A DNA stretch of 63,889 nucleotides, counting the filler, from Kipferlia bialata (taxonomy: Eukaryota), in assembly GCA_003568945.1 (NCBI GenBank). It is 6 parts of 6 records of this genome, joined end to end, with 100 filler letters (N's around TTAATTAATTAA, not from the genome) between each part and the next. Parts side by side here need not be neighbours in the genome. Positions count along the whole stretch, not along the records: positions 14,032 to 27,959 come from BDIP01000882.1; 5 more parts are not named here. One strand, 5' to 3'. Within the stretch, counting starts at the first letter, position 1. The number at the start of each line of letters is the position of its first letter. The position numbers were made by a program, and so were the translations under genes. The notes beneath the pieces are model-generated. The model was not told the origin of the DNA and searched no databases. It saw only the letters and a list, made by a program, of their open reading frames with translations. Positions 11,644-60,238 of the stretch are shown here, one piece after another.

Positions 11644-13643
11644 TGCATCTCATATACCCCGTGCGATATAAGTAGCGACACCTACCAATACAATGATGGT
11701 CCTATACTCCCTCTTGGTAAGTGGGACCCTCTTTCTTAGTCATTCCCTCTCATTCACTTATCTAAACCCAATCTGTGGCGTGGTATAGAGCAAGGCATTG
11801 CCTATGGGTCAGATGACAAATCTCTCACGCCACTCCCGCTCCCGCTCCGGCAGTCTTCCCCACCCCCCATCTACTACAGGGTATACCAGGGCACCGTTGA
11901 CACCCAGGACACCGGCAGTCACACCTAGTCTTGATCGAACCAGATTCAGAGTGTCAGTCCCTCCAGCCGTTATATAGCCACTTAGGTCTCTCATTTCTTT
12001 CTGGTCGAGTTATTCATTCTGTGTGCATAGTTGGGTAGTGCTCCAAATGTATATATATAGAGAGGGTAGTTCCTCCTTTAGTATTGAGAACACCACTCAT
12101 TTAGTACCATAGAGAGAGACAGATGAATATGAGAGAGAGAGTCACTGACAGTGGCACTATTTGTGACACAGAGTATGAGCTGTCACTACACCCACATTAA
12201 TACACTAAACTCCTTTGATGCTTTCCCTCCCTCTCTTTCACGCGCAGTTCCGTATTGTAGTAGTCTAGAGTATATTCAGGTTGGTGGAATCATTAGATCT
12301 TACTCAACATCCCCCCCCGCCCCGCCCCTATTAGCCCCTCTTACACTCATGTTCCTTGGTATTCCAAGCTCTCTATTCAGACACTCTCCTTTTCGTCCCA
12401 TTCCCTATACATATGAATATTCATATGTTCAGATTCCACAACCCTGTGTATGTGCCCCTCTGACTCTCCCTTATCCCCTCAGACTGCCGGTCCCCCACCT
12501 GTCCCAATGTACACAGAAAGTGTGCACATACACAGTAAGGAAGAGAGAGAGGGAGAGAGAGGGGGAGAGGGGGTGCTGGGTGATGTTGACCCTGCTCACA
12601 TTGTGAATGTAGGTATATATGCCAGTGCTACACATATATACAAGATACATGATGTATATACAATACCCATGCACCATACATTCAAATCTCAGACTCCTCC
12701 TCCTGCTACACCATCTACAACAACAGGACATTGTACATTGAATAGTATACATACATTCACTCTAGTGTGTATATGTGTAAGTATATACTGTCTTGCTGTC
12801 TTAACCTCAGGCTCCTCCTCCTGGTACACCATCTACAACAACATGATCCTGGAGCCCACTGTACCCTTCTACGCATCGGCAATGCCATCAGGTTAGGAAA
12901 TAGGGGTAAACACTATATGTACTATATTGTCACATATATATCTGAGTCAGATTCTGACTGTGTACTGTATGAAAACTGTGAGGTTCTGGAGGATCTATAA
13001 CTCCCTCAAGTAGGAGTATTTATATATCCAGGCATAACCACTCCCGATCAGTTAGTTGGTTGGTGTGGCAATACAACCATGTACTACTCCTCCATCTGGA
13101 GGGACACAGGGGGGGGGATGACATTCAACTATAACTACGCGGTGAGTGGGAATCCAATGGGTTTGTGCCATGTCTTGTCAGCTATGTATATGTTCATGTG
13201 TATGTAGAGGTCTGACCCCAGCTGCACTTCAACCCCTGTGGCAAGTATGTGGATGCATGTACCTACCCAGAGCAACCACCTGTGGGCATGTACCTGTCGT
13301 ACATATCAATCACGCCAACATACTTCTGGGGAGGTATGGCCACATGCAACATATACAACAGTATATATATATATATCTGTATGGCCACGAGTATAGTTTG
13401 TAGTTCTCTTCCTTGAATATATGTGTATTATGTGTATAGATATGCCATCAGACCCCAAGTGGCACATGTCTGTCACGATTATTATAGATAGTATGTGTTA
13501 ATTAGTATATATGTCAGCGGTGTATACTGTAGTTTGCATCAACTATGGTACTATATATATGTGCATCGTGTATACTAACCGTCAGACCACAACTGGCACA
13601 TGTCTGTCACAGTGGACACACCAGCTGCCCCAGTCAACCATGG
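11644..13643 (+). CDS. Multi-exon hypothetical protein (ends uncertain)
   Basis: GT-AG-bounded exons include 12811-12891 (SSSWYTIYNNMILEPTVPFYASAMPS), 13032-13141 (ITTPDQLVGWCGNTTMYYSSIWRDTGGGMTFNYNYA), 13222-13244, 13271-13332 and 13585-13643. No family recognised. Confidence 0.4.
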
Positions 13644-13931: not shown

Positions 13932-14031
13932 NNNNNNNNNNNNNNNNNNNNNNNNNNNNNNNNNNNNNNNNNNNNTTAATTAATTAANNNNNNNNNNNNN
14001 NNNNNNNNNNNNNNNNNNNNNNNNNNNNNNN
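13932..14031. other. Artificial contig spacer (N44-TTAATTAATTAA-N44); the same spacer occurs at 27960-28059, 41988-42087, 56014-56113 and 60139-60238
   Basis: Identical 100-nt N runs with a six-frame-stop linker. Confidence 0.95.
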
Positions 14032-14084
14032 TCGCGACCCTCTGCTTATGAGACAAATGCTCTAACCAACTGAGCTACGGTGAC
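14032..14084 (-). tRNA. tRNA-Met (CAT), probably elongator; 3' end cut off by the contig edge
   Basis: The minus strand reads GTCACCGTAGCTCAGTTGGTTAGAGCA TTTGT CTCATAA GCAGA GGGTCGCGA. The D-arm/A-box and an anticodon stem-loop with CAT are present; the T-arm is lost in the gap. Confidence 0.85.
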
Positions 14085-15730
14085 GTTACGGCGGAATGAC
14101 ATGTATGATTACTGGACCGTTCGGTGACGAGTTGCCACGTGGAATATGTGAAAATACTAGATCACTGCACTTAGGTAGTGCAGTGACGACTTACGCAGCT
14201 GGAAATTCTATTGTATCAGGTACATTCTTTACAGAGCTACGGTGACGTGCTCTTAAGATGCACATATAGTACTGGACCATCACAACGCGCTAGAAATACA
14301 CAAGAGACAATGCAATGACCATCAGCGAAAGGCAGCTACTGAAGCAGCATGGGATTGTCTAACAATATATATGCCGAGCTACGATGACAATCTCTAAACG
14401 ACATGTAGGATAACTGGACCAATAACATCGTCATCGTCATCGTCATCGTCTGAGCTACGGTGACATTCGTCTGTCATGACATGTAGTATTATCATAATAC
14501 TGTGTTACTGGACACTGATAATCTCTGAAAACGGACTTCCAATCGTATACTGGCCCCATACTACACTAAAGAGAGTGTTACATTCAGAGTCATCACCAAA
14601 TGTGGTGTTCTTAGTACACATATGTACAAAGAACAATGTCACATTCTCAAGAGTAGATGCAACAGACGACTGTCAGCAGCAAAACTCATATTCAGTGGTG
14701 TATTCAGTGTCAGTATTCATATACTTCATATACAGTGTCTCAGGGTGACGTGTGACTGTCACGATGATTAGGACTGACTGTAGGTGATCACTGTCAAATT
14801 GTTCAATGATCCTCAACGTGAGGGCCTGAAGTGATATTGTGACAGTTAAAGTGTATACAGCTGACTATGTACAGGGGATCACCCTGTAGCGCAGTGTATG
14901 ATGAGAGAAATCTTCCAAGGCACATGTTGAGTGATTGATGTCCTCACTAGATGAATAGTATATGTTATATAAAAAGTATCAAAATAGATGGCCTCTCAGT
15001 CTCGAAGGCCGCCTGGTTCGCACTCCGCTCTTCGAGCTCATCGATGAGCTAGTATGGACTTGTCTGATGAATAGATTCCTATCGTCATCGTCATCGTCAT
15101 CGCCATATGTGTCTGAGCTACGGTGACGTGGTCCCATGCGGTATATGTGATAATACTAGGTCAACAGGCCTTGCAACGTTGTCGTGTTTCTTCCAGGAGA
15201 TACATGCAGTGGCACAAGCCAAAACAATACGGTAAAACTTCACAAGAGACAAGGCATTGAACTTCATGAGGCAGCTACTGAAGCTGCATGTACTTGCCTG
15301 ACCAATAGATATACATATCGTCATCTTCATCGCCATCGCCATATATGTACCTGAGCTACAGTGACATGGGGGCAGCGTGATATGTAGTAGTACCGAACCA
15401 ACACAGTAACCAGAGCATGATAGAGCATGGAGGTAAACGGTGATATGCCGCATATCAGATATGCGGGTGCCACCACATATAGTACTACTGGTACTGGTAC
15501 TGATACTGGACCTTAATTTACAGGCGTGGAGCTGTCAATGTACCATATGATGTACCCAGAGGGCCAGTGGATCCAAATCCAGAGCCTTTTGGGCCAGAGG
15601 TAAAACTACACCCGAGACAGGGCAATGAACATCAGGAGAAGACAGCTACTGAAGCAGCATAACTTGACTGACCAATTAGTATACCTGTTGTCATTGTCAC
15701 CATATGTGTCTGAGCTACGTTGACGTGTTT
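14085..15730. repeat. Degenerate repeat region upstream of tRNA-Met containing copies of the tRNA 5' end
   Basis: (t)gagctacggtgac-like copies start at 14234, 14376, 14451, 15114, 15352 and 15711. A second module gagaca..gcaatga..cagctactgaagc.gcat occurs at about 14304, 15245 and 15614. Confidence 0.8.
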
Positions 15731-16404
15731 CCGAAGAGAATATATCATTGTACAAGGCACACTTGAAATTCCAGGCATTCGATTCAGACAAGGGCGAAAC
15801 AATAGCGGTAGAGCTTGTACAGACTGAGATACGATTACATGTCAACGTGTCATATACTTGATTCTTCTAGAACCGCTTACGGGATTTCTAGGCACCAGAT
15901 AGCTCGAGGACTCCATTCAGAAGCCTCAGGAAGTCTCTTTGGCTGGCTTAAAAGTGGAATTTATACACAAGCTTAACCTAAGCTGAGTGACGAGTCGTCA
16001 CTGACGAGGTTTATCGTGTATGTGGTGGTACGAAATCCGATCCCAATTCAATACTGAGCAACTCTGACGTACCAGTTAACTAATTATGTATCACTGTGAT
16101 GGAAATGAAAGTCAAAGACTGCTTGGAATTGGAATTGCATTATATACCAATACCGGTGCCGCATCACGCTACAACGTATCAACACATACAATCTATTCAT
16201 GGTTCTACTATGCTACACTACACACAACACTAATAGTATACAACCTACACACATCGATTCACACACACGTACTATAATCATACTACCCTATGGACAACAT
16301 CCACCGTCGCCCCCTCCTGTACTGCTACCTCTTCATACTATTCTAGCACCCACTATAACCGGAGCAAGCATAGTAAATGACCAGTATAACTAGCAACAGT
16401 ACTA

Positions 16405-19400
16405 CTAGTCGTCAGCCACCACCACCGGGATTGCTCTAACTGTGCTGCCAACAGGACTTGAGCTATCCCACATGTTGAGCTTGAAGATCAGTGGCTTAGT
16501 CGGTTGGCAAGCGTAGTAGCCGGGCTCTCCTTCGAGGATTCCATAGTCAAAGCTGAGCTGACCGTAGACATCAACCCACCAGGTAGCAGAGGAGTCAGTA
16601 TCGACAGTGTAGATACCCGGCCCGGAGATCCACTCGAGCTGCTCCTTCTCGCCAGAGATTGACTGCCATGTACATGACGTATCAGAAGCACCGTAGCAGC
16701 ACATGATCTCAGCCTCCAGCCCCATAGAGGTGACGCCATCGATACCCTCGTCTGCATACTCCCTTACTACACGAAGCAGAGGGTCAGTATCGTCTGTGGT
16801 CCAGGTGTCTCTACCCACAGTGGCAGAGGTGTAGCCGGGGAGGAACATGGAGGACACACTGTGTGCCTTGAGGGTACCCACATCAATCATGCTGTTACCA
16901 GCAATATCTCCAACCTCAAGGGTCATCTTGTTGAGTCCCGAACAGACAGAGTCCTTGGTGAGGGTGGCAACTGTCTCAGTCGTCTGTCCATCAACAAAGT
17001 ATGCAACAGCTAGGTCAAGACTCTCAGCTGAAGAAGCAACTGTACCATAGACAGAGAGTGTACCGGTGATTGTGACACTGGTGCTAGTAAGGGTGATATC
17101 TCCACTAGCGGACTCGAGAGTGAGTCCGCTGGCAGCAGAGAGCTTCAGGTAGTCTGCACTGTAAACGGACCAGTTCTGTGTTCTACCGTCATCAAACCTC
17201 TGGATCATCAGCGTGCTACTACTGGTGTTGTCCTTGACAAAGACTCCATCAGTAGTCAGTGACATATCATAGGTGGCACCGGTAAGTGTCAGAGTGTCAC
17301 TCGACGATACTACTGAGTCAGTGAACAGTCCAGCAGAAGTGAAACCAGCGGCAAGGTTGACGGGGCTGTTGAAGGTGATTTCGGTGAAGTCACCACTGAC
17401 CGGCAGACTGACACTGGACGTGCTCATGTTACTGACCTCCATAGTCATGGTTGTGATGCCACCGTCGGCCTGGAGGGGCAGGTCGGTGTAGATGTAGCCA
17501 CTGGAGAAGGCCATGTCGCATCCACTAGTCTGACCGTCCAAGCATATTGAGGGCGTTATGCCACCTTCTGCATATATGTTCTGCGCCTCTAGCTTGCCTG
17601 TCACAGACAATGCAGAGTCGATTGTGACATACTCTGCAGAGAGTCGGAGACCAGCAGCTACGCTATTGATATCAGTGGCCATCAACATAACGTCTATGCC
17701 AGTTGCAGATTCACTTGGCATCTCAAGGACACTGAGCTTGGCAGAGTTCGCGGTGAGTGAGAGAGAGCTTGATGTAAGAGAGAGCGACTGCCCCTTAAGA
17801 GACAGACTACTCTCAGCCTCAAGCTCGATACTCATACCAGTGACGTGTGTCGTGCCGCCAGAGGTGAGCCAGGTATCCTGACTCATACTGCCGAGGCCCA
17901 AGACTTCATAGGAAGTCACGTTCCAGGAATTGGCTGTCGTGTCCTCTAGGACTCTCAAGGCACTGCTTCCACCATGTGACAGATAGAACTCAGATGCCAC
18001 AACAGCACCGAGGTAGTACCCTCCAACCACCATAGAACCGGTGGCTAGCTCAATATCACCGGTCACAACGAGGTCACCACCAACAGAAACCTCCCCAGAG
18101 GTAAACAAGACGTCGCCACTAACACTCAACGGCGCCTCAGACACTGATGACAGGACATCTACCTGGAGTGTCTGTGCCTCCAGCAGGTTGTCAATCTTCA
18201 GATTGCCAATGTTGACAGCCGTGGTGTTAAGAGACATCACTGATGTGCCACCGGTGACAGAGAGGTCAAGAACACCCGTGGCTGCAGTGCCAGTAATGGT
18301 ATCCGTGTAGAGACTGGTAGCGTGGAGATCTGAGGCTACTGTTACGTTCAGAGAGCTGACGTAGAGACTCCGGTCATCGGCAATGTTGAGATAGGCCTCA
18401 GTCTCTCTCTGAGACTCCAGAGCCACTGTGACATTCCCACCTGCACCACCAGCAGTGAATGTAAGGGGGTAGTTGTCCGAGAAGAGGACACCTCCAGCGA
18501 GAGTGATGTCTCCCCCAAAGCGGGTGTTGTCAGCGACAGCAATCTCTTCGTTAGCAGCTATGGTGACGACGTCTCCAGCTAGGGAGATAGTGGAAGCAGA
18601 GGTCACATAAATGTCACTGGAGGAGGAGAGTCCAGAGGCGTTCACGTCCATCGTAGATCTTCCATCTGTGACAGACAGTGAATCAGCAGAGAGCTGCCCA
18701 CTGACAGCCACGTCACCTCCACACGAGAGAGACCCCTCAGTCGCACTCATGGAGTATCCAGATACATCCTCCACAGCCCTTGTCTCAATGACATCACCAC
18801 CGAACCTGAGTACAATAGTATCCAAATAGATATCCTCAACCTCAGCCTCTAGTGCAGAGAGGTATGGTACATCGATATCACTAGAGACAGTAAGGGATCC
18901 CTGGATCTCCACACTGTCCTCAGCAGCAGAGAGGAGGGGAACATACACCTCCTCGACTTCAACCTTAGTAGACATGTCAAGGCCCTTCTCAAGCACTGCG
19001 GGCTCCTCCTCTTCTTTTTCAACCAGCACCCACCCCACACTGAGTGTAGAGGTGTTGAGATCGCCATTAACATCGACTGTAGAATGCTCCACATTGAGGA
19101 GAGGCACCTCAGAGAGAAGGTCTGTAGTGTCAATGGGGATACCGGCACCGGCAGAGAGAGTGCTACTATGGAGCAGAGACGCAACCTCTACATCCCCAGA
19201 CACAACAACAGCTGTGTCGTTCAGAGACATCATAGGAGTCCGGTCCTCTGCACTCAGCGAGAAGTCAAGGCTCCTGGCACCATCGGTCCCATAGATACTC
19301 GTCATAAGAGCGTCGGTCTCCACAACAAAGTACTCATCTGCAGAGACAGTCACGTTCTCAGCAGTGAAGGACATGTTGCTATCGGCATTGAGGGAGAGGT

Positions 19401-22400
19401 CGAAATCAGCAGAAACTATGAGATCGATGGATGAGTAGACCTCCCATGCCTCTGGGTTGCGATACACATCCAGGTACTCACTACTCTCCTCCAACCATAA
19501 GGCTGCTGTGTAGATCTCATTGGCGGCGAAGTCACCATCACACACGATAGCCCCATTAGCAGCCGCAAGAGGTATTGTGTCTTCCTCCTCCTCACCCTCC
19601 GCCTTGGCAGTGAGTCTCTCTCCAGAAGAGGTGTCTCTGAAGCTGACAGAGTCAACAACAGTGACACCAGCAGAGAGTGTGCCGTTGATCTCCACAGTCT
19701 CGTCCTGTGCCACAAGAAGAGGCACATACTCTGCCTCAGTAACCTCCTCTACCTTAGTAACACTGAGGACCTCCAACTCCAGACCACCGTCACCCTCTTC
19801 AGAATCAGTCTCCTCGGTAGCTATCTGTACCCAACCCACGTTGAAGCTGGTGGCATTGAGGCACCCATTGACAATAACAGTGTCATCCAGTGCACTGAGA
19901 AGGGGGGTCACCTCTACACCCTCACCCTCAGTCACTGATGGTATCTCAGCGCTCTCAGTAATGGCCACGCCATAACCGACAGAGAGGCTCTCCACATAGA
20001 GCTCACTCTCAAACACTGCGTCACCCTCAACGACAAAGCTATCATCCGCAGATACAGTCACGTTCTCACCCGTGAGGTAGAGTACACTGTCAGAGGTTAT
20101 CTCGAGGTCTAAGGAAGACTCAAGGTACCACTGAGCCCTACCCATGTAGAGGTCGAGGTAGTCTCCATCCTCACCAGACTCCAGTGAGATCTCGTTAGAG
20201 TAGACTGTTCCGTCTACGAGGAAGTCCCCATCACAGGAGAGAGTACCATCGTCAGCATACAAAGTGGCGACTACTGGTAGCTCCTCTCCACCCTCAGCCT
20301 TAGCGCTGATGTCTTCAGAGTCCCCAGAGTACATGAAGCTGACAGAGTAGAGGTAGGTGTCCTCAGCGTAGAGAGAGCCATTGACTGACACTGTATCATC
20401 CAGAGCGGACAGGAGAGGTACATACTCGTACTGGCTGGTCTCAGTCTCTCCCTTAGTGGAGGCGAGTACAGGGGCAACCTCCGCACCCTCCACCTGCACA
20501 TACCCCACATTGAATGCTGTGGTGTTGAGACACCCGTTGACTACGACAGTGTCCTCCAATGCACTTAACAGAGGGACAGAGGTGGTCTCTAGGTCCTTTG
20601 TCACGGCAAAGACCTCAAGCATCTCATCATCTCCAGATGGAATCGGGTCTACCCCAATACCCACAGAGAGGCTGTCCATCTCTACTGATGTCGGGACATA
20701 CAGGTGGTCTGCATAGAGTTCTAACATGCTACCCTCACTGGCTGCGAGGGAAAGTGTGTCCAGACCAGATCCCTCCTCGGATGCACTTACAGAGAGAGAG
20801 AGAGAGCCTGTCACTGAGGAAAGGTCTGTGTCAATCTCGAGTACAAGTGGCTGCTCAGAGGAGTGGATCCTGCTGGTGGCCACTTCCCCTTCGACACTGG
20901 CACTACCCGTTACAGTGACCCCTCCAGAAACATCAAGACTGTCTCCAGTGAGAGAGAGATTGGGAGTCCTCTCAGAGTAGCCGTTAGTGATGGCGAATCC
21001 ATCCATAACCTCTAGTGAAGAGGCCTCAAGTGTGATATGTCCTAAGGTGCTACTGGCTAGGGTGGTGATCTCTAGACGACCCATCGAGGAGTCGGGGAGA
21101 GAGAGCAATGGCTGGTCAGTGTTGATGCTGCCATTGATTGTGAGGTCACCAGAGATGTCTAGGGTCTCCATAGAGACAGGACCAGACATTGAGATGCCAC
21201 GGTCACTGACATCGAGAACACCATCTCTCACCTGGAGTGTCTGTGCTGCCAGGTCAGCCTCTACTGTCAGAGAACCCTCAACCTCTACATCATCAGCAAA
21301 GCTCACTGAGTAGCCCACACTGCCAATAGAAACTTCAGAGGCGGACTGTCCGATCAGGATACTGCCACTGGCGTCGAGTGTAAGGTCAGTAGTAGACTGG
21401 ATGGTATCGCAAACAACATTTGACGAGAACACAGTCTCATCAGCGGTGACAGCAATGGAGCCGTCCTGAATCACCACTGAGGTAGTCCCACTGGTAAGTG
21501 ACACAGTATCTGCACTGATATTCGCAACAGTCAGCTCTGTGGCAGATAGAGTGCCACCGGAGATGGTCATATCAGTTGTGGTTATGCCATCTGGTACATT
21601 CAGGGAACCAAGTATGTCAACACTCTCTGGAGACAGTGAAAGAGACACTGACTCAACGGCGAGAGAGATCAACGCCTCAGATGCAATGGCAACACCGGCA
21701 GTGGAGATCTCAACAGTGTGAGCTGAGGGAGTGGATCCACCCTCTACAACTCTGGGGTCACTGACCCCACTGACTCCAAGGGTAAGACCATCTGCCTCTG
21801 TGCCTAGGATAGTCACAGCTGTCACCTCCCCCAGCACTTCCAGCGTGTTGGATACTAGCGTGTGACCAGCACTGTGTGACAAGGACACAACCTGAGCGTT
21901 GGATCCAACAGTCACATCTCCGTTGAATCCAGTAGCTCCCTGTCCGGCATCTAGAACAAGATCTCCACCCCTGGTACTGTCACTAGCACCACCGACCACG
22001 GTCACAGTACCACCTGCGACACCGGTACCGGCAGAGCCAGCGATGGTGATATCAGTCTGGCTGGAAGAGGATGCAGCAACAGAGAGAGTCACGGGGGTGC
22101 CCTCAGTACCAATGACCAGGTTCTGGAGCAGGTGAGTATTGCCATGGGCAATCAACAGCCCCTGGCTACTGGGGTTGATCTCCACAGCTCCCTGGGAGTC
22201 ACCTGCCGCCCGCCCGCTGTCCTCAACACCAGAGAGAGTGAGAGACCCAGGGGTATCAGAGGACCCCATAGCAGAGGCAGCACTGGCCCTAGTGATAGAG
22301 TAAGTATCAGTGGCTGTTGTGGCATCGCCAAGCACAAGGTTGGCGCCAGCGTGGGTCAGAGACGAGGCCTCGAAGGTAGTGGGGCCAGTCACAGAGACAC

Positions 22401-25400
22401 TGTTGGAGAGCAGGGAGAGGTTGTTGGACACGCCTCCAATGCTCACACTAGAGGTGGTACCAGTACCAATGTAGAGTGCAGAGCCACTGGAATCCAGAGA
22501 GAGAGCGGTGTTGGCAGTGTCAATGGAAGTGCCCACCACTAGAGGCACATTGATGGTAGCACTGCCATTGAGCAGCTCAAAGCTACCACTACCGGCCTGC
22601 AGAGTAGCGTAGTGGCCGGCAGCATCTGTATCTCCCATGGAGAGAGAGACAGTGGCGAGGGTCTGCAGTGGGGACAGCGTGTACTCGCCAGAGGTGTGGG
22701 AGAGAGACCCTGCTGCAAAGACGAACCCGTCTGAGCTGGGACCCTCGGGGTAGAGGCCGAGGGTAGGAGAGAGGGTGGAACTCGTTATGGCAGCTGCATC
22801 GGTACTATCTCCAAAGTACATGGCACCATTCGATGAGAATAGTCCATCAGAAGAGGTCAGAGAGCCCACAGTGGAGGCACCAGAGACAGAGAGAGAGCTG
22901 GGGTCAACGGGATACTAGGTAGACAGTATATATATCAGTATAGGGTGAATAGTACTGACCTCACTGTAACGGAGTCCATGACAAACTCCCCAACTGAGAG
23001 TGCACCAGTCACAGACAGATCTCCAGAGACAGAGGCATCTCCACCTGTGGTTGGTGATAGTGATTATATATATATATATATATATATAGTAACGCCTTCT
23101 TCGTTTCACCAATGAGTATATGCAATAAGTACGTTGAGGCATCTCCACCTGTGGTTAGTGAAAGTGTATGATAATACCACCCGACATATATAAGAGTGCA
23201 CTGCCATCTATATAGAGAATATGAGGCAGAGGCATCTCCACCTGTGATTAGTGGACTAAACTTCTATCTGAAAACGAAGCAATGGCTGTGATTCACTCGA
23301 CCACAGAATATGCTACCATTGAAATAGATTGGTAGTAGTATACGAGGAAGAGAGAGAGAGAGAGAGAGAAAGAGAGTACCTACTAGCAGGTCCCCATCTA
23401 ACGAGGAGTCACCACCCACAGAGAGAGAGGAAGGAACACTCTTGGACCTGAGATATTAGAAAACTACGCGCTTTCAGGATGAAGCTACACGATATCAAAA
23501 CAAAGAACAACATATCCTTCACGATGAGTAACTATACCTTGTCTGAGAGGGTGTGCCTATCTGGACAGACTGGCCAGAGGGGGCAAGGGTTACAGGGCCA
23601 CCTAGAATGAGACGGAACTATTAGTACCAGATATATGTCTGGTAAAGATACCATAGACATTTTCAATTATAGGTAGAGAATGTGTACCTAATGGGTCCAG
23701 TGTGATTCCGTTATATGCCTCTAGTACATCACGTAGGTATCAATATGCAATCATGCTAAGTTGATAATCGATACCTAGTGGATCCAGTGGGATTCCGTTG
23801 TCTGCCTCCAGTCCCTATCTATATCTATCAACATATACATACATGTATATACTCAAGAGTCGAGTAAGGATATACTAACCTAGTGGATCCAGTGTGATTC
23901 CGTTGTCTGCCTCCAGTGTGAGGTCCCCCTGTGCCTGGTTGGTGATGGTCGCAGCTGGGACAAATGTGCCTAATGGTGAGATACTAGTGGTGGTAGCAGA
24001 GAGAGCGTCAAGCAGTTAGAACACACAGTTTCGTCAAATATCACATGTCTCATCGTTTGACCCTATACGTATATATAGTGTGAATTCCTGATGACATGTG
24101 TATAGATGGCACCTGACTCATCATTGGACCCCATCTGGATGGTGCAGTGGTCATCACCATCTAGCCTGGTGTTATATGTATATAATCACTTCCTAATGGG
24201 TATATAATACTATAATAGATTATATATTGTACATTCACCTAATGTATGGTATGTTCCTTGTGTTGACAATCTCCAGAGAGGCACTGGGTATCTAGTGTAT
24301 GTATAGTATAATTCTATTAGGATTAGTATATATAGTGTGTATACCTGATGTGTGGCATGTCCCTTGTCTTGACAATCTCTAGGGAGGCACTGGGCAGAGG
24401 GGTGCCGATACCCACACACTCAGAGTCTGAAGGGTAAATATGTATAAACTACCTATGTGGATATAGGAAGAGAGATAGGGAGAGAGGGCCGATACCCACA
24501 CACTCAGAGTCTCGGCATAAGTATGTATACACTTATTACATAAGCTTAGCTAGGAGAGAGAGAAAGAAAGGGAGGGAGAGAGAGAGAGATGAAACCCACA
24601 TACTCAGAGTCTGGGCATTTGGTATGAAAACACATTCAATTCTCTATATGAGCGGTAATTATATGGAGAGGGGAATATGAACCATAATTATATAGAGAGG
24701 GGAATATGCCGGACGGGCATTGTCAGTTATATACCCGGGTGACATACTGACAATGAATACCGGTATAAAAAAGATAGTATACCTGGTATGACAGTGAGTG
24801 TTTGTTCACCTCTCCTGAAACACATAGAGAAGGACGTATAGAGTATATATTCTATATATAAATATATATATACCTGGAATGACTGTCAATGTCTGCAATC
24901 TCCACTGCCGCACTGTCATCACTGACAGCCAGAGTATATAGAATACGTATATACATATACATTAGTATATATACTATATTATATACTTATATACCTGGTA
25001 TGACCGTTAATGTCTGTGCAATCTCCACTGCCGCACTGTCATCACTGACAGCAAGGGTGTAATATACACATATATTTATATTAGTATATATACTATATTA
25101 TTTACTTATATACCTGGAATGACTGTCAATGTCTGTGCAATCTCCACTGCCGCACTGTCATCACTGACAGCCAGGGTGTAATATATACTCATATATACAC
25201 GTAAGTATATGTACAACAGTAAACTTATAGAAATATATACCTGGAATGACAGTGAGTGTCTGTGCAATCTCCACTGCCGCACTGTCATCACTGACATCCA
25301 GAGTATATATAATACATATATATACATTAGTATATATACTATATTATATACTTATATACCTGGAACAACCGTTAATGTCTGTGCAACCTCCACTGCCGCA

Positions 25401-26783
25401 CTGTCATCACTGACATCCAGTATTTTGAATACATATATATATACACTAATGTATTAGTATATATATATTGTATATATATATATACCTGGTATGACAGTGA
25501 GTGTCTGTGCAATCTCCACTGCAGCACTGTCATCACTGACAGCAAGGGTGGCCAGGACAGACGACATGGACAGAACTGCAACAGCCCCTGGTATTAGACA
25601 AATCCAAAAATAGATACACATATATATTATCATATATACTGAGACAGCAAGGGTGGACAGAAGAGACGACATGGACAGCACCGCAACTGCGCCTAGTGTA
25701 AGAGTCCGAACATACATATATATATATACTGATACTGCCACTGTACCTAGGCCAATTGAGACCACGAGCAGCACCAGTACAACTGCCAGGGTGACACACA
25801 TGCACTGCGATGTCTTGCTAGAGACATGTGAAGTGTTAGTAGGAGTGTAGGATGTGGTCTGCTTGGTGGTCTCTGGGTACTCGGGAAGAGGGGCAGCCAC
25901 ATAGACCTATTATGAGTTAGAATAGAGACTATATGAAGATAGGACGAGTCATAGTATATATATACATAGACAGTATACATATCACATACAAACCTGAGAA
26001 GGAATTAGAGATACCAGAGGCACTGTAGTGACTGGGGGCTGGGGAGGCATAGATCCAACATAGTATATATCTACCTATCTATCTATCTATCTATATATAT
26101 AGGTATGTGTGTGTATATAAATCTACCTGTGGCACTGTAGTGACTGGGGGCAGGGTGGCTGGGGAGGGCATGGGTCTGGGTCTGGACCCCTTGGCCTTGG
26201 ATCCTTGCAGTGAGTACACATCTATTCTATACAAACATATATACGTATATATATAGACATACATATACATTGGAGAACATGGACCCCTTGGCCTTGCTAC
26301 CTTGCAGTGAGTGTACACTGAATAATACACCAGGGTATATGCATATATACACACTCATATACATACATATCCTTAGGGTATGGGTCTGGGATTCTGTACA
26401 CACATATATATACCCTTCTTTCTGGCCATCGGCATGAAAATTGTAAATACTCTCAAATAGTAACGACACAATGGTATTTATGTATAAATATAAATATATA
26501 TATATATATATCCATACCCTTCTTTCTGGCCATCGGCATGGGCAGTGATGAATTCCTACAAACAATACAACTGATCACTCTTTTAGTTATACGAATAGTT
26601 ATAGCTCTAGTTCTCACCCTTCTTTCTGGCCATCGGCATCGGCCTTGGAAACAATATGAAAATAATAGACTTGCATATGAGTACAGTATCAGCATCATAT
26701 AGTACATACCCTTCTTCCTGGCCATGGGCATTGGCATGGGCATTGGGAGTGGAGATGATGCCGCTGAGAGAGGGGCCTATACC

Positions 26784-26814
<31 letters not shown>

Positions 26815-27690
26815 TAGTATGTATGATCCTTATTAATCTCACCCTTCTTCCTAGTCATCGGCATTGGCATTGGAAGTGGAGATGATGCAGCTGAGAGAGG
26901 GGCCATTGGAAGAGCACGACCAACACTAGGGGTCAGTCAAGGTAGAGAGACTCTGAGAGTGTATACACTATAGTATATATATATATATATATATATATGC
27001 ATAACATTGGAAGAGAATTATAGATTATAGAAAACAGTCCAATACTATGGGGAGAGAGTGCTTCTGCCCATAGTAACTACATATCTAATATCTTCATTAT
27101 CTACACATAGACTCTAACCTGGGTGACGCTCTGTTGTTTCCTCTCCCCACACTGGGTGAGTCTCACACTCTTCAATAGAAATATTGTTCATATAGTATAA
27201 AGTATAGTATAAATAGTATTCATATATTGTATGTATATATATACATGTACTCCTGACTGTTTTGAGTATATTCCTACCTGGGTGAAGCCCTTTCCCGTCT
27301 CTAGTGAGACTCATAGTATATATAGTACACACATTTCTATACACACACACATATATATATAGATACCAACCTGGGTGAAGCTCTGCTGTTCCCCCTGCCC
27401 ACACTGGGTGAGGCTCTGTTGTATGGTACTGTGGTGACAACAGCTCTCCTATTGTAAGAGTGGATGTACCTATATATATATGGGTGGGGATACAAAATAT
27501 TTCCATTACCATTAATGACAGGTATATTTATATATATACCTAGTCTGCACAGGTGGCAGGGGACTAGACACAGGCAAGGCCACGGGCTTAGGCATAGGAA
27601 GGGGGAAGGGCATGTTGCCACTTTTGCCCTTCTTGGCACTCTGCTTCTGCACTATCTGGCTTTGGATAGTGAAGACATCATCCCTGAAGT
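16405..27690 (-). CDS. Giant (>2,400 aa) type II membrane protein with a beta-strand-rich, acidic, tail-fibre-like ectodomain; 5' end probably incomplete
   Basis: The terminal exon of about 6.5 kb (ORF 16405-22869, acceptor near 22898) is S/T/G/V/D/E-rich with repeats. Small upstream exons encode a Pro/Lys-rich N-terminus (PLPMPMPMTRKKG), one hydrophobic segment (CVTLAVVLVLLVVSIGLGAVAVL, about 25550-25800) and the motif VGIGTPLPSASLEIV. Confidence 0.8.
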
Positions 27691-27959: not shown

Positions 27960-28113
27960 NNNNNNNNNNNNNNNNNNNNNNNNNNNNNNNNNNNNNNNNN
28001 NNNTTAATTAATTAANNNNNNNNNNNNNNNNNNNNNNNNNNNNNNNNNNNNNNNNNNNNGGCGTCTTTTTTTTGGATCCCCCCCCCCCCCCCCCCCCCCC
28101 CCTCACCCCCCAG

Positions 28114-33500: not shown

Positions 33501-36500
33501 GTCACCCCAATCTCGTAGATTTGTAGTTGTATTAACATCTCATGTATGTCCTCACCCCAGGCCGGTCACCGGTCCGAGAGGTCCCAGCGGGAGAGGGTGG
33601 AGATGGAACTGGGTCACATGAGGTAGCAATATTTCAAGTACTGCATTTACAGTACCCCCCCCCCCCATCTCACCCCCCAGGTCGACTGTGACCACGCTGC
33701 GTGGTGATCTGTCTGGTGCGACCAAGGAGAGAGACAGCCTGAGGGGGGAGAACGAGGGGATCAAGGCAGACCTCCAGATGCTCAAACAGAAGCTGGACAC
33801 GTACGTGCAGTAATATACAGAATGATATATAGCAAGTATTGGATACCCTCTTCCACCTCCCTCACCCCCAGACTAGGCATGGAGGCCGAGCACCTGCGGC
33901 ACGAGAACAGTCTGTTGGTGTCTAGGAATACGAGTCAGACTGAGACCCTAGTTAGTGTGAGGACAGGGGGGGAGACCACACTCGACACACTCCACAACAC
34001 GTGCATAGAGAGGGACGGTCTGATAGAGAAGGTCATGAGACCCCTTGCTGAACTAGCAGCACCAGTCTTTGTCTCACCATTTACATCCCCCTCACCCCCT
34101 AGGTAGCCAAGGTTGAGGCCGCCCATGCCGCCCTATCCTCCGAACTGGCAGACGAGAAGGACAAGCACGCAGCCCAACTCGCGCAGAAGCAGGTGGGGCC
34201 AGTGGTTTCATATATCATTGCCAGATGCATACTTGCGATATGTTCCCCACCCCCCCATCCTCACCCCCAGAGTCTCTTGGCCAGTGAACAGCTGAGGGTG
34301 GCCACGCTCACTAAGGTAGGATGTTGTGACATTGTCAAACTGTTGAAACAGAGAGGGTCGTAATGTGTTGTCATCTCACCCCTTCAGGACCTGGCCGAGA
34401 TGCGGTCCAGACCCCCTGTGCAGAAGATAGTGTACATGCAGGCCAGAACAAGGGTCGAGAGCGCAAAGGTATACTCATGTATATATGTATACATACACCA
34501 TTAGATTTGTTTTGTTTGTGTACATGTGCTATACTTTGCTACCTCCCCCATCTCTGTCTGACCCTTAGGAGAAGGCCAAGCCCTCCACCCCCCAGGCCAA
34601 GAAGGGAGAGCCAACACGAGATGCCTCAGTGCAGACCAGACGACCAATGGTGCCCAGCGCGTCAACAGCACAGCTCAGACAGCAGGTATGGGAATATGGA
34701 TATACTATTCTAATTATTTTCAATATGCAGTGACATGACCCCCTCTAACCTTCAGGCCCAGGACAAGAAGAGGGAGAAGGAGAGGGAGAGAGAGAGGCAG
34801 AAGGAGAGGGACGAGATGGCCAAGGAGCGGGAGAGGGTGGCCAACCTCCTCAACACAGCAGAGATAGCCAAGGAGGCTGGGGAGATTGCACTCGAGGAGG
34901 CAAAGGCTCTGCAGGTGTGTGTTTATGTATGCTAGTATATACATATACACATATATTTTTATATTTGTATACATTTGTGTGTGTATACCTCCCCTCCCCC
35001 TGACCCCCAGGCGGATGTGTCTGAGAGGGAGGCAGACATGGAGGCAGACATGCTCAGAAAGACACAGGTACCTGGGGTTGGAATACTATGCATCCTTACT
35101 GATATTTGGTCTCACACTATTATGCATACCCTCACCCCTAGAACCTTGAGGCAAGGGAGAGAGACATGGCGTCTGAGAGACAGCGGCTGGAGGCCAGACT
35201 CGCCTTGGTTGAGAAGGAGAGGGAGGGATTCAGGGAGCAGGACAAGCTGTCGAAGGCCCAGTCTCTCAAGCAAATGGAGGGAATGACGTCTCCTAGGTAT
35301 GGTGCATCATATGTGTATACATATACTGTACCATGTCTATTACTGTACTTGTATATCTCCACCCCTCTCTCACCCTAGGACTGTGAGCAGACTGCAGCGT
35401 GACCTACAGGCAGCCAAGGACGCCCTGTTACAGGTGGGTACATCCTACTTTATACATACACTCATGATGCCCATATATACCCCCCCCCCCTCCCCTGACC
35501 CCAGGCCCAGCAGGACAAGCGGGATGTGTCAGCCGAGCTGGACTCTGTCCAGACCACATCCTCCAAGGACCTGGCCTCACTCGCAGCCAGGCAGATGACA
35601 AAGATACAGGTGGGTGGTATATTAGTATATTTTCATTGTAAGGCATGTGCTAACCTTAGGACCTCCGCAACTCCCTGACCGCTGAGCACGAGGGTGTCAT
35701 GACACAGAAGGACAAGGAGTACAAGGAGAGGGAGAAGGTACGTGGTGTGTGTGTATGTGTGTATGTATAAGTGTATCATAATAGCTACTTCATCGCCCCC
35801 ACCCCCCAGGTTGCTGAGATGGAGAGGGATGCCGAGATCAGAAGAATGAAGGAGGAGCATTCACTGATGAAGCAGGGCCTGGTCAGGAAGGACAGGTGGG
35901 TGGGAGTGTGTACATACATTCGAGATATATATGTATCTGTAGCATGTCTCCCTATTGTATATATATATATACCTGTCTGACCCCCAGGGAGCAGGCTGCC
36001 ACCATCGCCTCTCTGACCGAGGAGGTGTCCACACTCACAGCAAGGGCAGACGGGTTCAGGTGGGGTGGGGTGTTTGCGGGGAGTGTATTCTCTATGAGAT
36101 AATGAAGTGAGGGACAGTATTCATTACATATGTGTGCAAGGGCACACGGGTTCAGGTGGGGGGGGGGGGGGGGGATACGTAGAATGGATAGTATAAGAGA
36201 AGGTNNNNNNNNNNNNNNNNNNNNNNNNNNNNNNNNNNNNNNNNNNNNNNNNNNNNNNNNNNNNNNNNNNNNNNNNNNNNNNNNNNNNNNNNNNNNNNNN
36301 NNNNNNNNNNNNNNNNNNNNNNNNNNNNNNNNNNNNNNNNNNNNNNNNNNNNNNNNNNNNNNNNNNNNNNNNNNNNNNNNNNNNNNNNNNNNNNNNNNNN
36401 NNNNNNNNNNNNNNNNNNNNNNNNNNNNNNNNNNNNNNNNNNNNNNNNNNNNNNNNNNNNNNNNNNNNNNNNNNNNNNNNNNNNNNNNNNNNNNNNNNNN

Positions 36501-37146
36501 NNNNNNNNNNNNNNNNNNNNNNNNNNNNNNNNNNNNNNNNNNNNNNNNNNNNNNNNNNNNNNNNNNNNNNNNNNNNNNNNNNNNNNNNNNNNNNNNNNNN
36601 NNNNNNNNNNNNNNNNNNNNNNNNNNNNNNNNNNNNNNNNNNNNNNNNNNNNNNNNNNNNNNNNNNNNNNNNNNNNNNNNNNNNNNNNNNNNNNNNNNNN
36701 NNNNNNNNNNNNNNNNNNNNNNNNNNNNNNNNNNNNNNNNNNNNNNNNNNNNNNNNNNNNNNNNNNNNNNNNNNNNNNNNNNNNNNNNNNNNNNNNNNNN
36801 NNNNNNNNTCATTGACTGATTTTCCCCTTGTCCAATTCCCTCCCCCCCCCCCCCCCACCCGCAGCCTTCTCCGGCTGTGGGGCAGACGAGTACAGAAAGA
36901 GGCTCTTCCCCCACAGGGTGTATAGAAAGAGGTATGAATTGTGTGCTAGTTACTGGGTACTTGGGTTGTATACCCCATTGTGTGCACCGTGTACTGTGCA
37001 TAGCAGCATGTCCGACCCCAGGTTCCGCGTCTACATAGCCACCCTCAGAGAGCATGGGCAGTGGCCGGTGGTCAGGGGCCAGTCCCAGTCAGCCAAGCAG
37101 TGTAAGGGGGGATGCGGAGCTGAGAAGGCCCCCCTGCTACCAACCC

Positions 37147-41860: not shown

Positions 41861-42217
41861 CTGAGGTCATAGAAGTGGAGAGGCCTGGGTCTGGGTATAC
41901 ATCTATATACACCCATACACATATATACCGATACAATGAGGAGAGCAACGGGGGGGGGGGGGGGGAAATTCATAAAATTTGTTTTTTNNNNNNNNNNNNN
42001 NNNNNNNNNNNNNNNNNNNNNNNNNNNNNNNTTAATTAATTAANNNNNNNNNNNNNNNNNNNNNNNNNNNNNNNNNNNNNNNNNNNNTGACTGACAGTCT
42101 CTCTCTCTCTCTCTCTGTCTCTCTCCCCCCCCTCTCTTACCCAGACACCGACTCCCTGTCTGACAGTCTCTCTCTCTCTCTCTCTCTCTGTCTCTTTTTC
42201 TGCCCTCTCTTACCCAG

Positions 42218-56013: not shown

Positions 56014-56117
56014 NNNNNNNNNNNNNNNNNNNNNNNNNNNNNNNNNNNNNNNNNNNNTTAATTAATTAANNNNNNNNNNNNNNNNNNNNNNNNNNNNNNN
56101 NNNNNNNNNNNNNCCTT

Positions 56118-57596: not shown

Positions 57597-60238
57597 CTAT
57601 GTGCTGGCTAGACCCCTGGACAAGTCAGGCATCGATTTCATGCGGTGAATGTTGGATGTGTTGGGGGAGTTTGCGGCACATGTAGTTGCGGCCTACAGGA
57701 ACAAGACAGGCAGCTCTCCCTTCCTAGAGAAACCGGGTAGCCAAGCTACACTTGATAGACAGTGCTGCTTTTCACTAAAGAGACAATTGAAAGAGGAGAC
57801 ATACATCATCTATTGGAGTGTTGGACTACCTGTCCCCCCCTGGCTGGGAGTGGGACTCTGGCACCATGGACACCTTGCCCAGCTTCCTGAGGGGTTAGAG
57901 GCATATCACTGCATTCACACTCAATATAACGAAATACAATTCCTTCAAAAATACAAACAAGTCCTTGTGATACACGTTGGGGTACCTGTGGCTGCCTGAG
58001 AATGGGACCAGGTCCGGCACTGGCTGGGACAGGATGGCCTGGGCCTCAAGGCTGCCCTGACCAAGTCTCTCGGTCTGGAACATGCCTGGGGGGTTAGAGT
58101 GATACACTGTACATTCCCACTGTACAAGATATGATCCCTGTCCATACCTGGGTCGAACCCTGCCCTCTCCCCCAGGGCCTCTGTGGATGCTGCCCCGCTG
58201 TAGTGCAACGCATCTAGAGTGGCACGGGCTAGGTCACCAGACACTGAGGGGGTGAGAGGGGGAGATAGAGAGAGAGAAGGTGGCAAGGAGACAAACAGTA
58301 CCTGAGTCGAGCCTGGCTATGCGGGATATGGATGGGACGAGGCCTGGTATGGGGAGTGCCCTGTGGACAGAGAGGGCCCAGGCCCTGACGACATGCAGCG
58401 CAACATCAACACCCGCAGTCTGGGCCTAGGGGTGAGGGGCGAAGAGTGTGGAAAATCCAATAGACTACTACACAGAGCAATAGGTCATTGTATATCCATG
58501 TACCTGTATGGCGCTGGCCAGTGTAGTGAGCAGGGCAAGTACGGGTCTAGACGTAGAGGGGGCTAGGGGCTGGGCGGCAATGCGGGCCACACTAGTAGTC
58601 AGCACGTCCTGGCCTGCCTGGGGGTGAGAGAGAGGACAATACATAAATATGCATTACATAAACGAGCATTACATATATGAGCATGAGTGTCCTCACCTGT
58701 CTGTCTGGGGTTGATAGGTATGCCGACACCGCCTGCTGCAAGGGGGAGGACACATCCCCAGGGCATGCCTCCAGTAGTGCACATATGTTGACGAGTGCCT
58801 TGTTGTGCGTGTGGGGTGGGAAGTGGCAGAGGACAGCCACAGCGGCACACACAGACAGAGACTCCCCACTGCCAAAGAGAGAGGCAGCAGGGGTCCCCAG
58901 CAGCTGGGCGAGGGTGGCTGCCCCGTCCCTGTGTGCCTCGAGGGAGGGGTACTGCTGGGGGTAGGCAGCAGCCGCAGAGGAGAGGGAGGCAGAGAGGGGG
59001 AGACGGGTGGCCAGGGCGACGAGGAGGCGGGACCCCCCTGCGTAGAAGGGAGCCTCTCTGGCCCTGAGGAGCGAGAAGGCGAGAGGGAAGAGGGGGTAGA
59101 GGGAGGGCAGCACAGGCCCAGGGGCGATGTTGACGAGGAGGGTGAAGCACTGGGCAGCGTTGATGAGCAGGGATGCGGCATCAGGCTGTCCGAGTCTCTC
59201 CGACACCTGACCCACCACCACTGAGAGGTCAGTGACCAGGGTGGATACCAGCCTCACATCAGACCGGGACAGGGTCAGGGCACGGAGGAAGGAGGCGAGG
59301 AGAGAGAGGGCACGGGCCCTGGGGAGGTCGAGCCTCTGGGACCGTGCGAACTTGAGTACATACAGACAGGCAGCACGGACGTCGGCAGGCTGCAGGACGG
59401 GGGCGCATGCTGTGACTATACCCAGGACGACTGACTCGAATGAGACCCTGGATATGGTTGTGGAGAGGGGTGCGAGGATGGAGTCTGCCACGGAGGGGGA
59501 GAGGAGGCAGGACACACACGCCCTGAGGAGGGGGACGCATGTGTTGGAGACAACCACTAGGCAGCATGCAGCGGGGAAGAAGGCCCTGGGTCTGGATATG
59601 GGCACGTTCTGGCACACCTGGGCCACAGACACTGCGTACTCAGAGCCAGCCAGCACCTCGTCACTCAGCCTTGAGGGGTGAGTCAAGGGTGAGTGATTAG
59701 AATGAGAGAGAGAGTGTGTGTGTGTGTGTGTGAGTAGGCACCTGGCGACAAAGAGATCTGGGTCATGCTTGGCTATGAGTGGGATGAGGACTGCTAGGGA
59801 TCTAGCAGCCACCCTAGTTGATAGACAGTGTGACAGGACAATCTTTGTGTTGCCCTGTGTCCTGCCCTGCTTGGATGGGGCCAGCAGGGAGGACAGGATG
59901 TCAAGGACAACATACTCAGCCTGGGGGTTAAGTGTCACGCACTAACAACTCCCATAACACTACTTACAACACACACTGTACCTGGGTGTCTGATCTGTTC
60001 TCGAAGAATGTGGTGAACAGCTCAATCATGACCCTCTGCTTGTCAGTGTCCATGGCATCCAGACACACCAGAGAGGCACACGCTCTGGGGGGTGAGGGGG
60101 GGGGGAGTCACTGAGAGAGCACAGAGACACATAGAGTANNNNNNNNNNNNNNNNNNNNNNNNNNNNNNNNNNNNNNNNNNNNTTAATTAATTAANNNNNN
60201 NNNNNNNNNNNNNNNNNNNNNNNNNNNNNNNNNNNNNN

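Follow-up and report, generated by a model that had tools for sequence, protein, structure and literature searches.

The tRNA-Met gene and its upstream array

The window, the whole 63,889-nt stretch of DNA that was analyzed, comes from Kipferlia bialata, a free-living fornicate whose 51-Mb assembly is fragmented and probably diploid (PMC5874029; the word "tRNA" is absent from the main text of that report). The window contains a tRNA-Met(CAT) gene on the minus strand that is broken only by the end of its contig. The run of N's beside it (13932 to 14031) is a fixed spacer, and DNA to the left of 13932 was treated as unrelated to tRNA-Met; a reading of that DNA as the downstream flank of the gene was rejected. 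Identical 100-base spacers lie at 13932 to 14031, 27960 to 28059, 41988 to 42087, 56014 to 56113, and 60139 to 60238. The first four pieces measure 13931, 13928, 13928, and 13926 nt, so that the window is probably a chain of contigs sorted by length, and neighborhood across the spacers carries no meaning. A 604-base N run at 36205 to 36808 is of another kind.

The remainder of the gene was supplied by contigs of two public runs of one sample, X1 and X2, which hold the array DNA described below. Loose ends of these contigs add the T-arm, the 3' strand of the acceptor stem, and a T-rich tail, resulting in a normal cloverleaf. The acceptor stem includes two G:U pairs, at positions 2 and 7 (window 14078 to 14084 plus the contig loose end), and the G1:C72 pair and TTC loop are features that we take to fit an elongator tRNA-Met. 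ARAGORN and Rfam missed the gene because the contig stops at nt 53. Over the array, neither program found a tRNA or other RNA family, and none of 26 weak matches fell within 14032 to 16400.

Upstream of the gene, its 5' end recurs as short copies, here called echoes A to F. The six copies named in the original prediction were borne out; all are on the minus strand, with starts at 14246, 14388, 14464, 15127, 15365, and 15724 (1, 2, 0, 0, 1, and 1 mismatches, respectively, over nt 1 to 14). When the first 13 nt of the tRNA were searched against the window with up to two mismatches, 11 matches were found, compared with 1.25 ± 1.19 expected, and 0 of 100 shuffles reached 11. With at most one mismatch, there were seven matches, consisting of the gene and the six echoes, all within 14072 to 15724 and on one strand. 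The copies had been described as 13 to 14 nt long, an end point that did not hold, since four of the six run to nt 15, where they terminate in TAGCTCAG. No copy of tRNA nt 16 to 53 was found inside the array. The parts of the array are as follows.

13932..14031, no strand: artificial spacer between contigs, from sequence; it hides the 3' end of the gene and the downstream DNA.
14032..14084, minus strand: tRNA-Met(CAT) gene, nt 1 to 53, cut by the contig end; from sequence, with the remainder in X1 and X2 contig loose ends.
14085..14120, minus strand: flank lying upstream of the intact gene; the GGTCCAGTA motif is at −34; from the motif and flank comparison.
14122..14164, minus strand: 7-nt echo remnant plus flank, which shares 78% identity with the flank of echo C; the same flank precedes a full echo at another locus.
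14234..14246, minus strand: echo F, nt 1 to 13 exact, its body lacking left-arm homology in a homology scan; 11-bp hairpin at 14161 to 14187.
14287..14388, minus strand: echo E (nt 1 to 13, one mismatch) and a left arm that has lost its repeat tract; from alignment.
14426..14464, minus strand: echo D (nt 1 to 15 exact), fused directly to the inverted-repeat tract, the remaining arm deleted; from sequence.
14736..14749, minus strand: possible decayed echo; weak body homology (P of about 0.02), to unit A only.
14945..15050, minus strand: unrelated multicopy exon-like piece that interrupts unit C; from raised depth and variant contigs.
15054..15127, minus strand: echo C (nt 1 to 15 exact), 10-nt linker, 25-nt inverted-repeat arm (15078 to 15102), and start of the left arm; all 25 bases of this repeat arm match the reverse-strand arm that precedes nt 16.
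15169..15183, minus strand: decayed echo with a substitution and flank in common with echo A (likely a local duplicate); flanks 65% identical.
15229..15365, minus strand: echo B (nt 1 to 15, one mismatch), followed by left arm for about 120 nt; from alignment.
15597..15724, minus strand: echo A (nt 1 to 15, one mismatch), followed by left arm for about 115 nt; from alignment.
15825..16068, minus strand: two weak, uncertain copies with three mismatches (starts 15838 and 16068); from the search for tRNA 5' ends.

Five of the six echoes (A to E) run into a common "left arm" that consists of a 10-nt linker, a (GACGAT)n tract, and a module of about 60 nt. The sequence elements that had been reported between the copies were likewise recovered: a tactggac motif (plus strand, at most one mismatch) lies upstream of the gene and of three of the six echoes (at −32, −32, and −50), a second module occurs three times at 77 to 80% identity (in A, B, and E, as the approximately 60-nt part of the left arm), and a (tcgtca)n tract is clear behind three of the six echoes. 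In echo F, left-arm homology is absent (z at most 1.9); the hairpin at 14161 to 14187 (minus strand) sits in this sole armless unit. Weaker copies start at 14128 (7 nt), 14749, 15183, 15444, 15838, and 16068, and only the copy at 14128 is backed by outside sequence. With the weaker copies, most of which are uncertain, the array comprises at most 12 units in 2 kb.

Other features of the window were also recorded. The exon-like piece at 14945 to 15050 (minus strand) joins the truncated arm of unit C where the two share a short similar motif. An unbroken frame of 2169 codons at 16405 to 22914 (minus strand), rich in Ser, Thr, Gly, and Val with an acidic middle, gave no Pfam match and is unusual in an intron-rich genome. 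Across 87% of its length, one ORF of the window matches K. bialata KIPB_007081 with 100% identity.

Junctions at one base step of the tRNA

Run X1 probably stems from the window's own sample and may be its source, and is hence not independent of it; it shows other loci too. Copy numbers were estimated roughly, as unitig depth divided by a single-copy unit of 507 (from six single-copy contigs, 458 to 533). By this measure, tRNA nt 16 to the end in X1 (depth 6717) corresponds to 13.3 copies and tRNA nt 1 to 45 (depth 3600) to 7.1 copies, and the X1 contig graph forks between nt 15 and nt 16. All three X1 contigs with a loose end at this step continue as the left arm in reverse complement (agreement 0.98), and the 6 to 7 surplus copies of nt 16 to the end adjoin, likewise in reverse complement, the (GACGAT)n arm found behind the echoes. 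The arm at these right junctions is identical to that of unit C at 25 of 25 bases, including three nonrepetitive bases at its inner end; beyond 25 bases the right and left arms diverge (the right arm is visible for 30 letters). Right junctions total 6.6 copies if the unlisted contigs start at 14040 (the listed contig accounts for 2.0, and the others were solved from the depth table), so that the ratio of intact genes to right junctions is near 1:1, and one left-junction unitig (nt 1 to 15 plus left arm) is present at 4.3 copies.

At the step itself no base is lost or duplicated, with four of the six echoes stopping at nt 15 and the right junctions beginning at nt 16. The inverted repeat is 25 bp long and lies 10 bases from the left junction and 3 bases from the right junction. 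A second tRNA family, which differs at 6 of 43 letters and has 9.4 copies, served as a control and formed an unbroken 82-nt unitig with no fork. The genome thus holds about seven intact tRNA-Met genes plus fragments of two kinds, whose junctions with the tRNA lie at neighboring bases. Because both junction types are tied to one arm each of an inverted repeat, they were read as the product of an insertion between nt 15 and nt 16. A spliceosomal intron at this position was rejected because neither strand of the insert has GT-AG ends, and a simple fold-back would not set an arm exactly at nt 16.

Whether other tRNA loci carry such copies had been named as decisive for the original prediction. For tRNA-Met they do: two other intact copies have an echo, 170 and 193 nt upstream. 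The contig matches listed comprised 15 of 62 pieces and 11 of 16 pieces; among them, upstream DNA is visible for 3 of the approximately 7 intact genes, and all three have an echo within 200 nt. In X2 record 11, an echo with arm precedes the intact gene by 170 nt and a second lies 159 nt further (X1 joint depth 416), and in X2 record 10 an echo with arm lies 193 nt upstream of the gene. A further contig, of 565 nt (record 7), holds two echoes and no tRNA piece among the matches listed; there, the flank of the 14128 remnant precedes a full echo. Two unit periods in the window, 182 nt and 142 nt (a unit with a 37-nt deletion), agree with this spacing of 160 to 200 nt, and periods of 280, 378, and 285 nt are at odds with an arm of fixed length. 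The upstream flanks of the intact genes fall into groups of about three and two copies.

X2 records 9 and 10 are long contigs that meet at a tRNA-Met copy, with depths of 280 and 989 compared with 7 for the contig of the neighboring gene; if X2 is RNA, as we guess, they may reflect a long transcript across the tRNA-Met locus.

Origin of the echoes

To examine how the units arose, their parts were compared. The flanks of the six echoes and the gene had a mean identity of 0.53 (21 pairs, 0.41 to 0.61), relative to a shuffle mean of 0.44 and a 95th percentile of 0.53. The arms are 0.77 to 0.80 identical, and nt 1 to 13 of the echoes depart from the gene at 3 of 78 positions. Against a decay of 11%, this conservation had a P value of about 0.03, weakened by the fact that the echoes were chosen for likeness. 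Flank, echo, and arm thus diverge unevenly (0.53, 0.96, and 0.78), which argues that the array is not one unit copied and evenly decayed. Two pairs do resemble local duplicates, with flank identities of 0.78 (15127 and 14128) and 0.65 (15183 and echo A), and local duplication probably made some units. We infer several separate insertion events together with some local copying.

That a site-specific element cut tRNA-Met between nt 15 and nt 16 is likely, given the junction data. Of the origins offered in the original prediction, relics of a tRNA-targeting element fit these data best. The same prediction also held that the echo mechanism acts at the DNA level, triggered by boundaries between conserved and variable sequence. 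An origin at the DNA level is supported, and the window is rich in short local duplications; a general trigger of this kind is not required and would not lead one to expect the mirror junction at exactly nt 16.

Our preferred account in full, put forward tentatively, is that an element with a 25-base inverted repeat likely brings a replacement tRNA-Met gene, located about 180 bases in from its left end, and that the echoes are its left scars. An insertion would leave the flank, nt 1 to 15, and the left arm before a new intact gene and would put the right arm and nt 16 to the end behind it. The new gene would be the next target, and left scars would stack upstream. Because the right scar would repeat 59 nt of the intact gene in direct orientation, recombination would remove it far more easily than a 15-nt left scar, and this could explain the one-sided pile-up of left scars. 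Frequent short tandem duplications and deletions would later scramble the old units. A replacement gene would account for the 160- to 200-nt period and for the near 1:1 count of genes and right junctions. Unit F and the missing old right junctions count against it, and the purge step must explain the latter: no diverged old right junction was found at 80% likeness among the contigs, and no contig with both insert ends, or with the right arm behind an intact gene, was found among the X1 and X2 matches listed. The window also shows no polarity, in that the best-kept arm (C) is 1 kb from the gene and the nearest unit (F) is armless. Further points against it are the periods of 280, 378, and 285 nt, the single tRNA piece listed on the downstream contig X2 record 9, and the lack of a convincing transposase or recombinase match in the ORFs scanned.

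The same element lacking a tRNA cargo would produce the same junctions and is possible, with less to recommend it. About six loci would be disrupted, and repair from an intact paralogue, or deletion into a tandem copy, would leave nt 1 to 15 and a partial left arm, with local duplication adding units. Such repair suits metamonads, in which classical end joining is absent and reliance on homologous recombination has been argued (PMC8516963). The arm remnants do vary, from about 10 to 120 nt, and the flanks are diverse; low flank identity would likewise be expected if the flanks derive from different paralogues. Behind one gene, X2 record 9 (a downstream contig of about 1.8 kb) has a single tRNA piece, and hence no right junction, among the matches listed. 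Cargo-free repair predicts neither the 160- to 200-nt period that recurs at three loci nor the similar numbers (near 1:1) of intact genes and right junctions.

A history without a mobile element, which is close to the view taken in the original prediction, is unlikely. In it, a palindrome would have been broken in one old rearrangement and its two sides joined to nt 15 and nt 16, with both products spread by segmental duplication and by the tandem duplication of about 100 bp that is habitual in this genome. The 64-kb window does hold 23 clusters of short local direct repeats, some of many copies, with a median shortest period of 105 bp; some echo units are clear local duplicates, and the grouping of intact-gene upstream flanks would fit segmental spread. 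In addition, 25 ORFs scanned gave no convincing Pfam match of any kind, and no transposase or recombinase was found among them (9 of 24 array ORFs were scanned with Pfam, with one subthreshold match). This rearrangement would, however, require both reciprocal junctions to be amplified 4- to 7-fold and yet remain nearly identical, and the uneven divergence of flank, echo, and arm argues against it, although the echoes were chosen for likeness. The local-repeat clusters, which include 752 to 1393, 12685 to 12846, 24778 to 25728, and 26404 to 26904, are of interest in their own right, as several copy an exon edge with its splice site.

A split or intron-bearing tRNA-Met, in which nt 1 to 15 with a trailer and a leader with nt 16 to the end are transcribed, paired via the 25-base arms, and spliced, is very improbable. 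The break is exact, with nothing gained or lost, perfectly complementary arms (25 of 25 bases) lie beside it, the 3' pieces are near-identical to the gene (one variant, one letter off), and echoes retain the upstream motif. On hand inspection, however, a bulge-helix-bulge cannot form (two of four central pairs, with the arm 10 and 3 bases from the cuts). There are about seven intact genes, the old 5' pieces decay, and the insert would exceed about 250 nt, 125 nt of its right end not being among the left-arm matches listed. Four units folded no better than shuffles (z of −0.12 to 1.18), and this gives no support to a structured noncoding RNA in each unit.

Relation to known elements and implications

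Dada transposons, compared here on the basis of main-text descriptions (PMC3706591, PMC8869645), resemble the K. bialata insert in that they enter multicopy tRNA genes at a specific site, the A box, and the Perkinsus Dada families share its left junction, TAGCTC followed by AG. Like Dada, the K. bialata insert occupies a fixed site in a multicopy small RNA gene, with left ends at nt 15 in four of six echoes and right starts at nt 16 in three of three contigs. The two differ in that A-box Dada families duplicate nt 8 to 13 (6 to 7 bp), whereas the K. bialata right junction begins at nt 16 with no duplication (nt 8 to 15 are missing). The missing duplication lowers the case for kinship, although one-sided loss or replacement of the target duplication has been reported in Dada. 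Dada elements also have no terminal inverted repeats, only subterminal ones of 7 to 9 bp, in contrast to the 25-bp repeat here; they are 4.7 to 11 kb long and encode a DDE transposase with a DxxH motif and zinc fingers. Neither a carried replacement gene nor stacked 5' scars are mentioned for Dada in the main-text descriptions, and no report of Dada in metamonads was found in the literature.

Nonautonomous terminal-inverted-repeat elements (MITEs) share with the K. bialata insert several near-identical copies and inverted repeats near both putative ends. No coding sequence was noted in the visible part of the insert, and nine array ORFs gave no convincing Pfam match. The K. bialata insert differs in its strict tRNA site, in its asymmetric ends, which extend 10 and 3 bases beyond the repeat, and in having no target site duplication, as nt 15 and nt 16 abut the insert. 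Spy is described as a terminal-inverted-repeat group that likewise makes no target duplication.

Prophages and genomic islands that integrate into tRNA genes break the gene, restore an intact one, and leave a displaced fragment beside it. The K. bialata array differs in being eukaryotic, in its stacked 5' ends with flanks, and in that no integrase was found; gene carriage is only inferred here. Nested tRNA cassettes in CPR bacteria may be a further parallel, although they lend no support to the reading given here.

Archaeal split tRNAs (PMC3218864, PMC4033280) are described as two exactly abutting pieces with complementary trailer and leader, as in K. bialata, which differs in having no bulge-helix-bulge and in retaining intact copies. 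Split tRNAs are tabulated for archaea only in the review sections concerned (PMC3218864/PMC4033280). The tRNA arrays of Entamoeba (PMC2652664) are likewise tandem and tRNA-linked, with short repeats, but their units, as characterized there, contain whole genes and are uniform, whereas those of K. bialata contain 15 nt of the tRNA and are diverged, with the mirror junction elsewhere. The earlier suggestion of a decayed Entamoeba-type array was abandoned because the units are not whole genes. A tRNA-derived SINE was rejected because the units break off within the A box and upstream flank is retained in several, and TRE5-A-type insertion near a tRNA (as defined in PMC3706591) was rejected because the junctions lie inside the gene.

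No description of such a tRNA-Met insert was found in the literature covered, mostly open-access journals with Repbase outside its scope, and the available text of PMC10045372, PMC12730594, and bioRxiv 10.64898/2026.05.21.726589 holds nothing on one. The left-junction 24-mer had no match among metagenome contigs, and the right-junction 25-mer had none among viral contigs. A gapped junction pattern matched one metagenome contig (L001), in which no tRNA was called, and the match was judged to be chance.

Strictly site-specific DNA transposons are rare in eukaryotes, and Dada has been named as the first such group in the main texts cited (PMC3706591, PMC8869645). If the element proposed here is real, it would add a further type: an inverted-repeat element of a metamonad that makes no target duplication and cuts, at a single base step, a tRNA gene with only about seven intact copies. 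Should it also bring along a replacement gene, this would illustrate how such an element survives when its target is essential and present in few copies, and the array of 5' scars would be a record of earlier insertions. The local repeats may reflect a genome-wide habit of an intron-rich, end-joining-deficient protist. The locus would also offer a concrete route from insertion to an anatomy like that of a split tRNA; that K. bialata has itself gone so far, with a eukaryotic split tRNA-Met born of site-specific insertion and pairing via former transposon inverted repeats, is highly doubtful.
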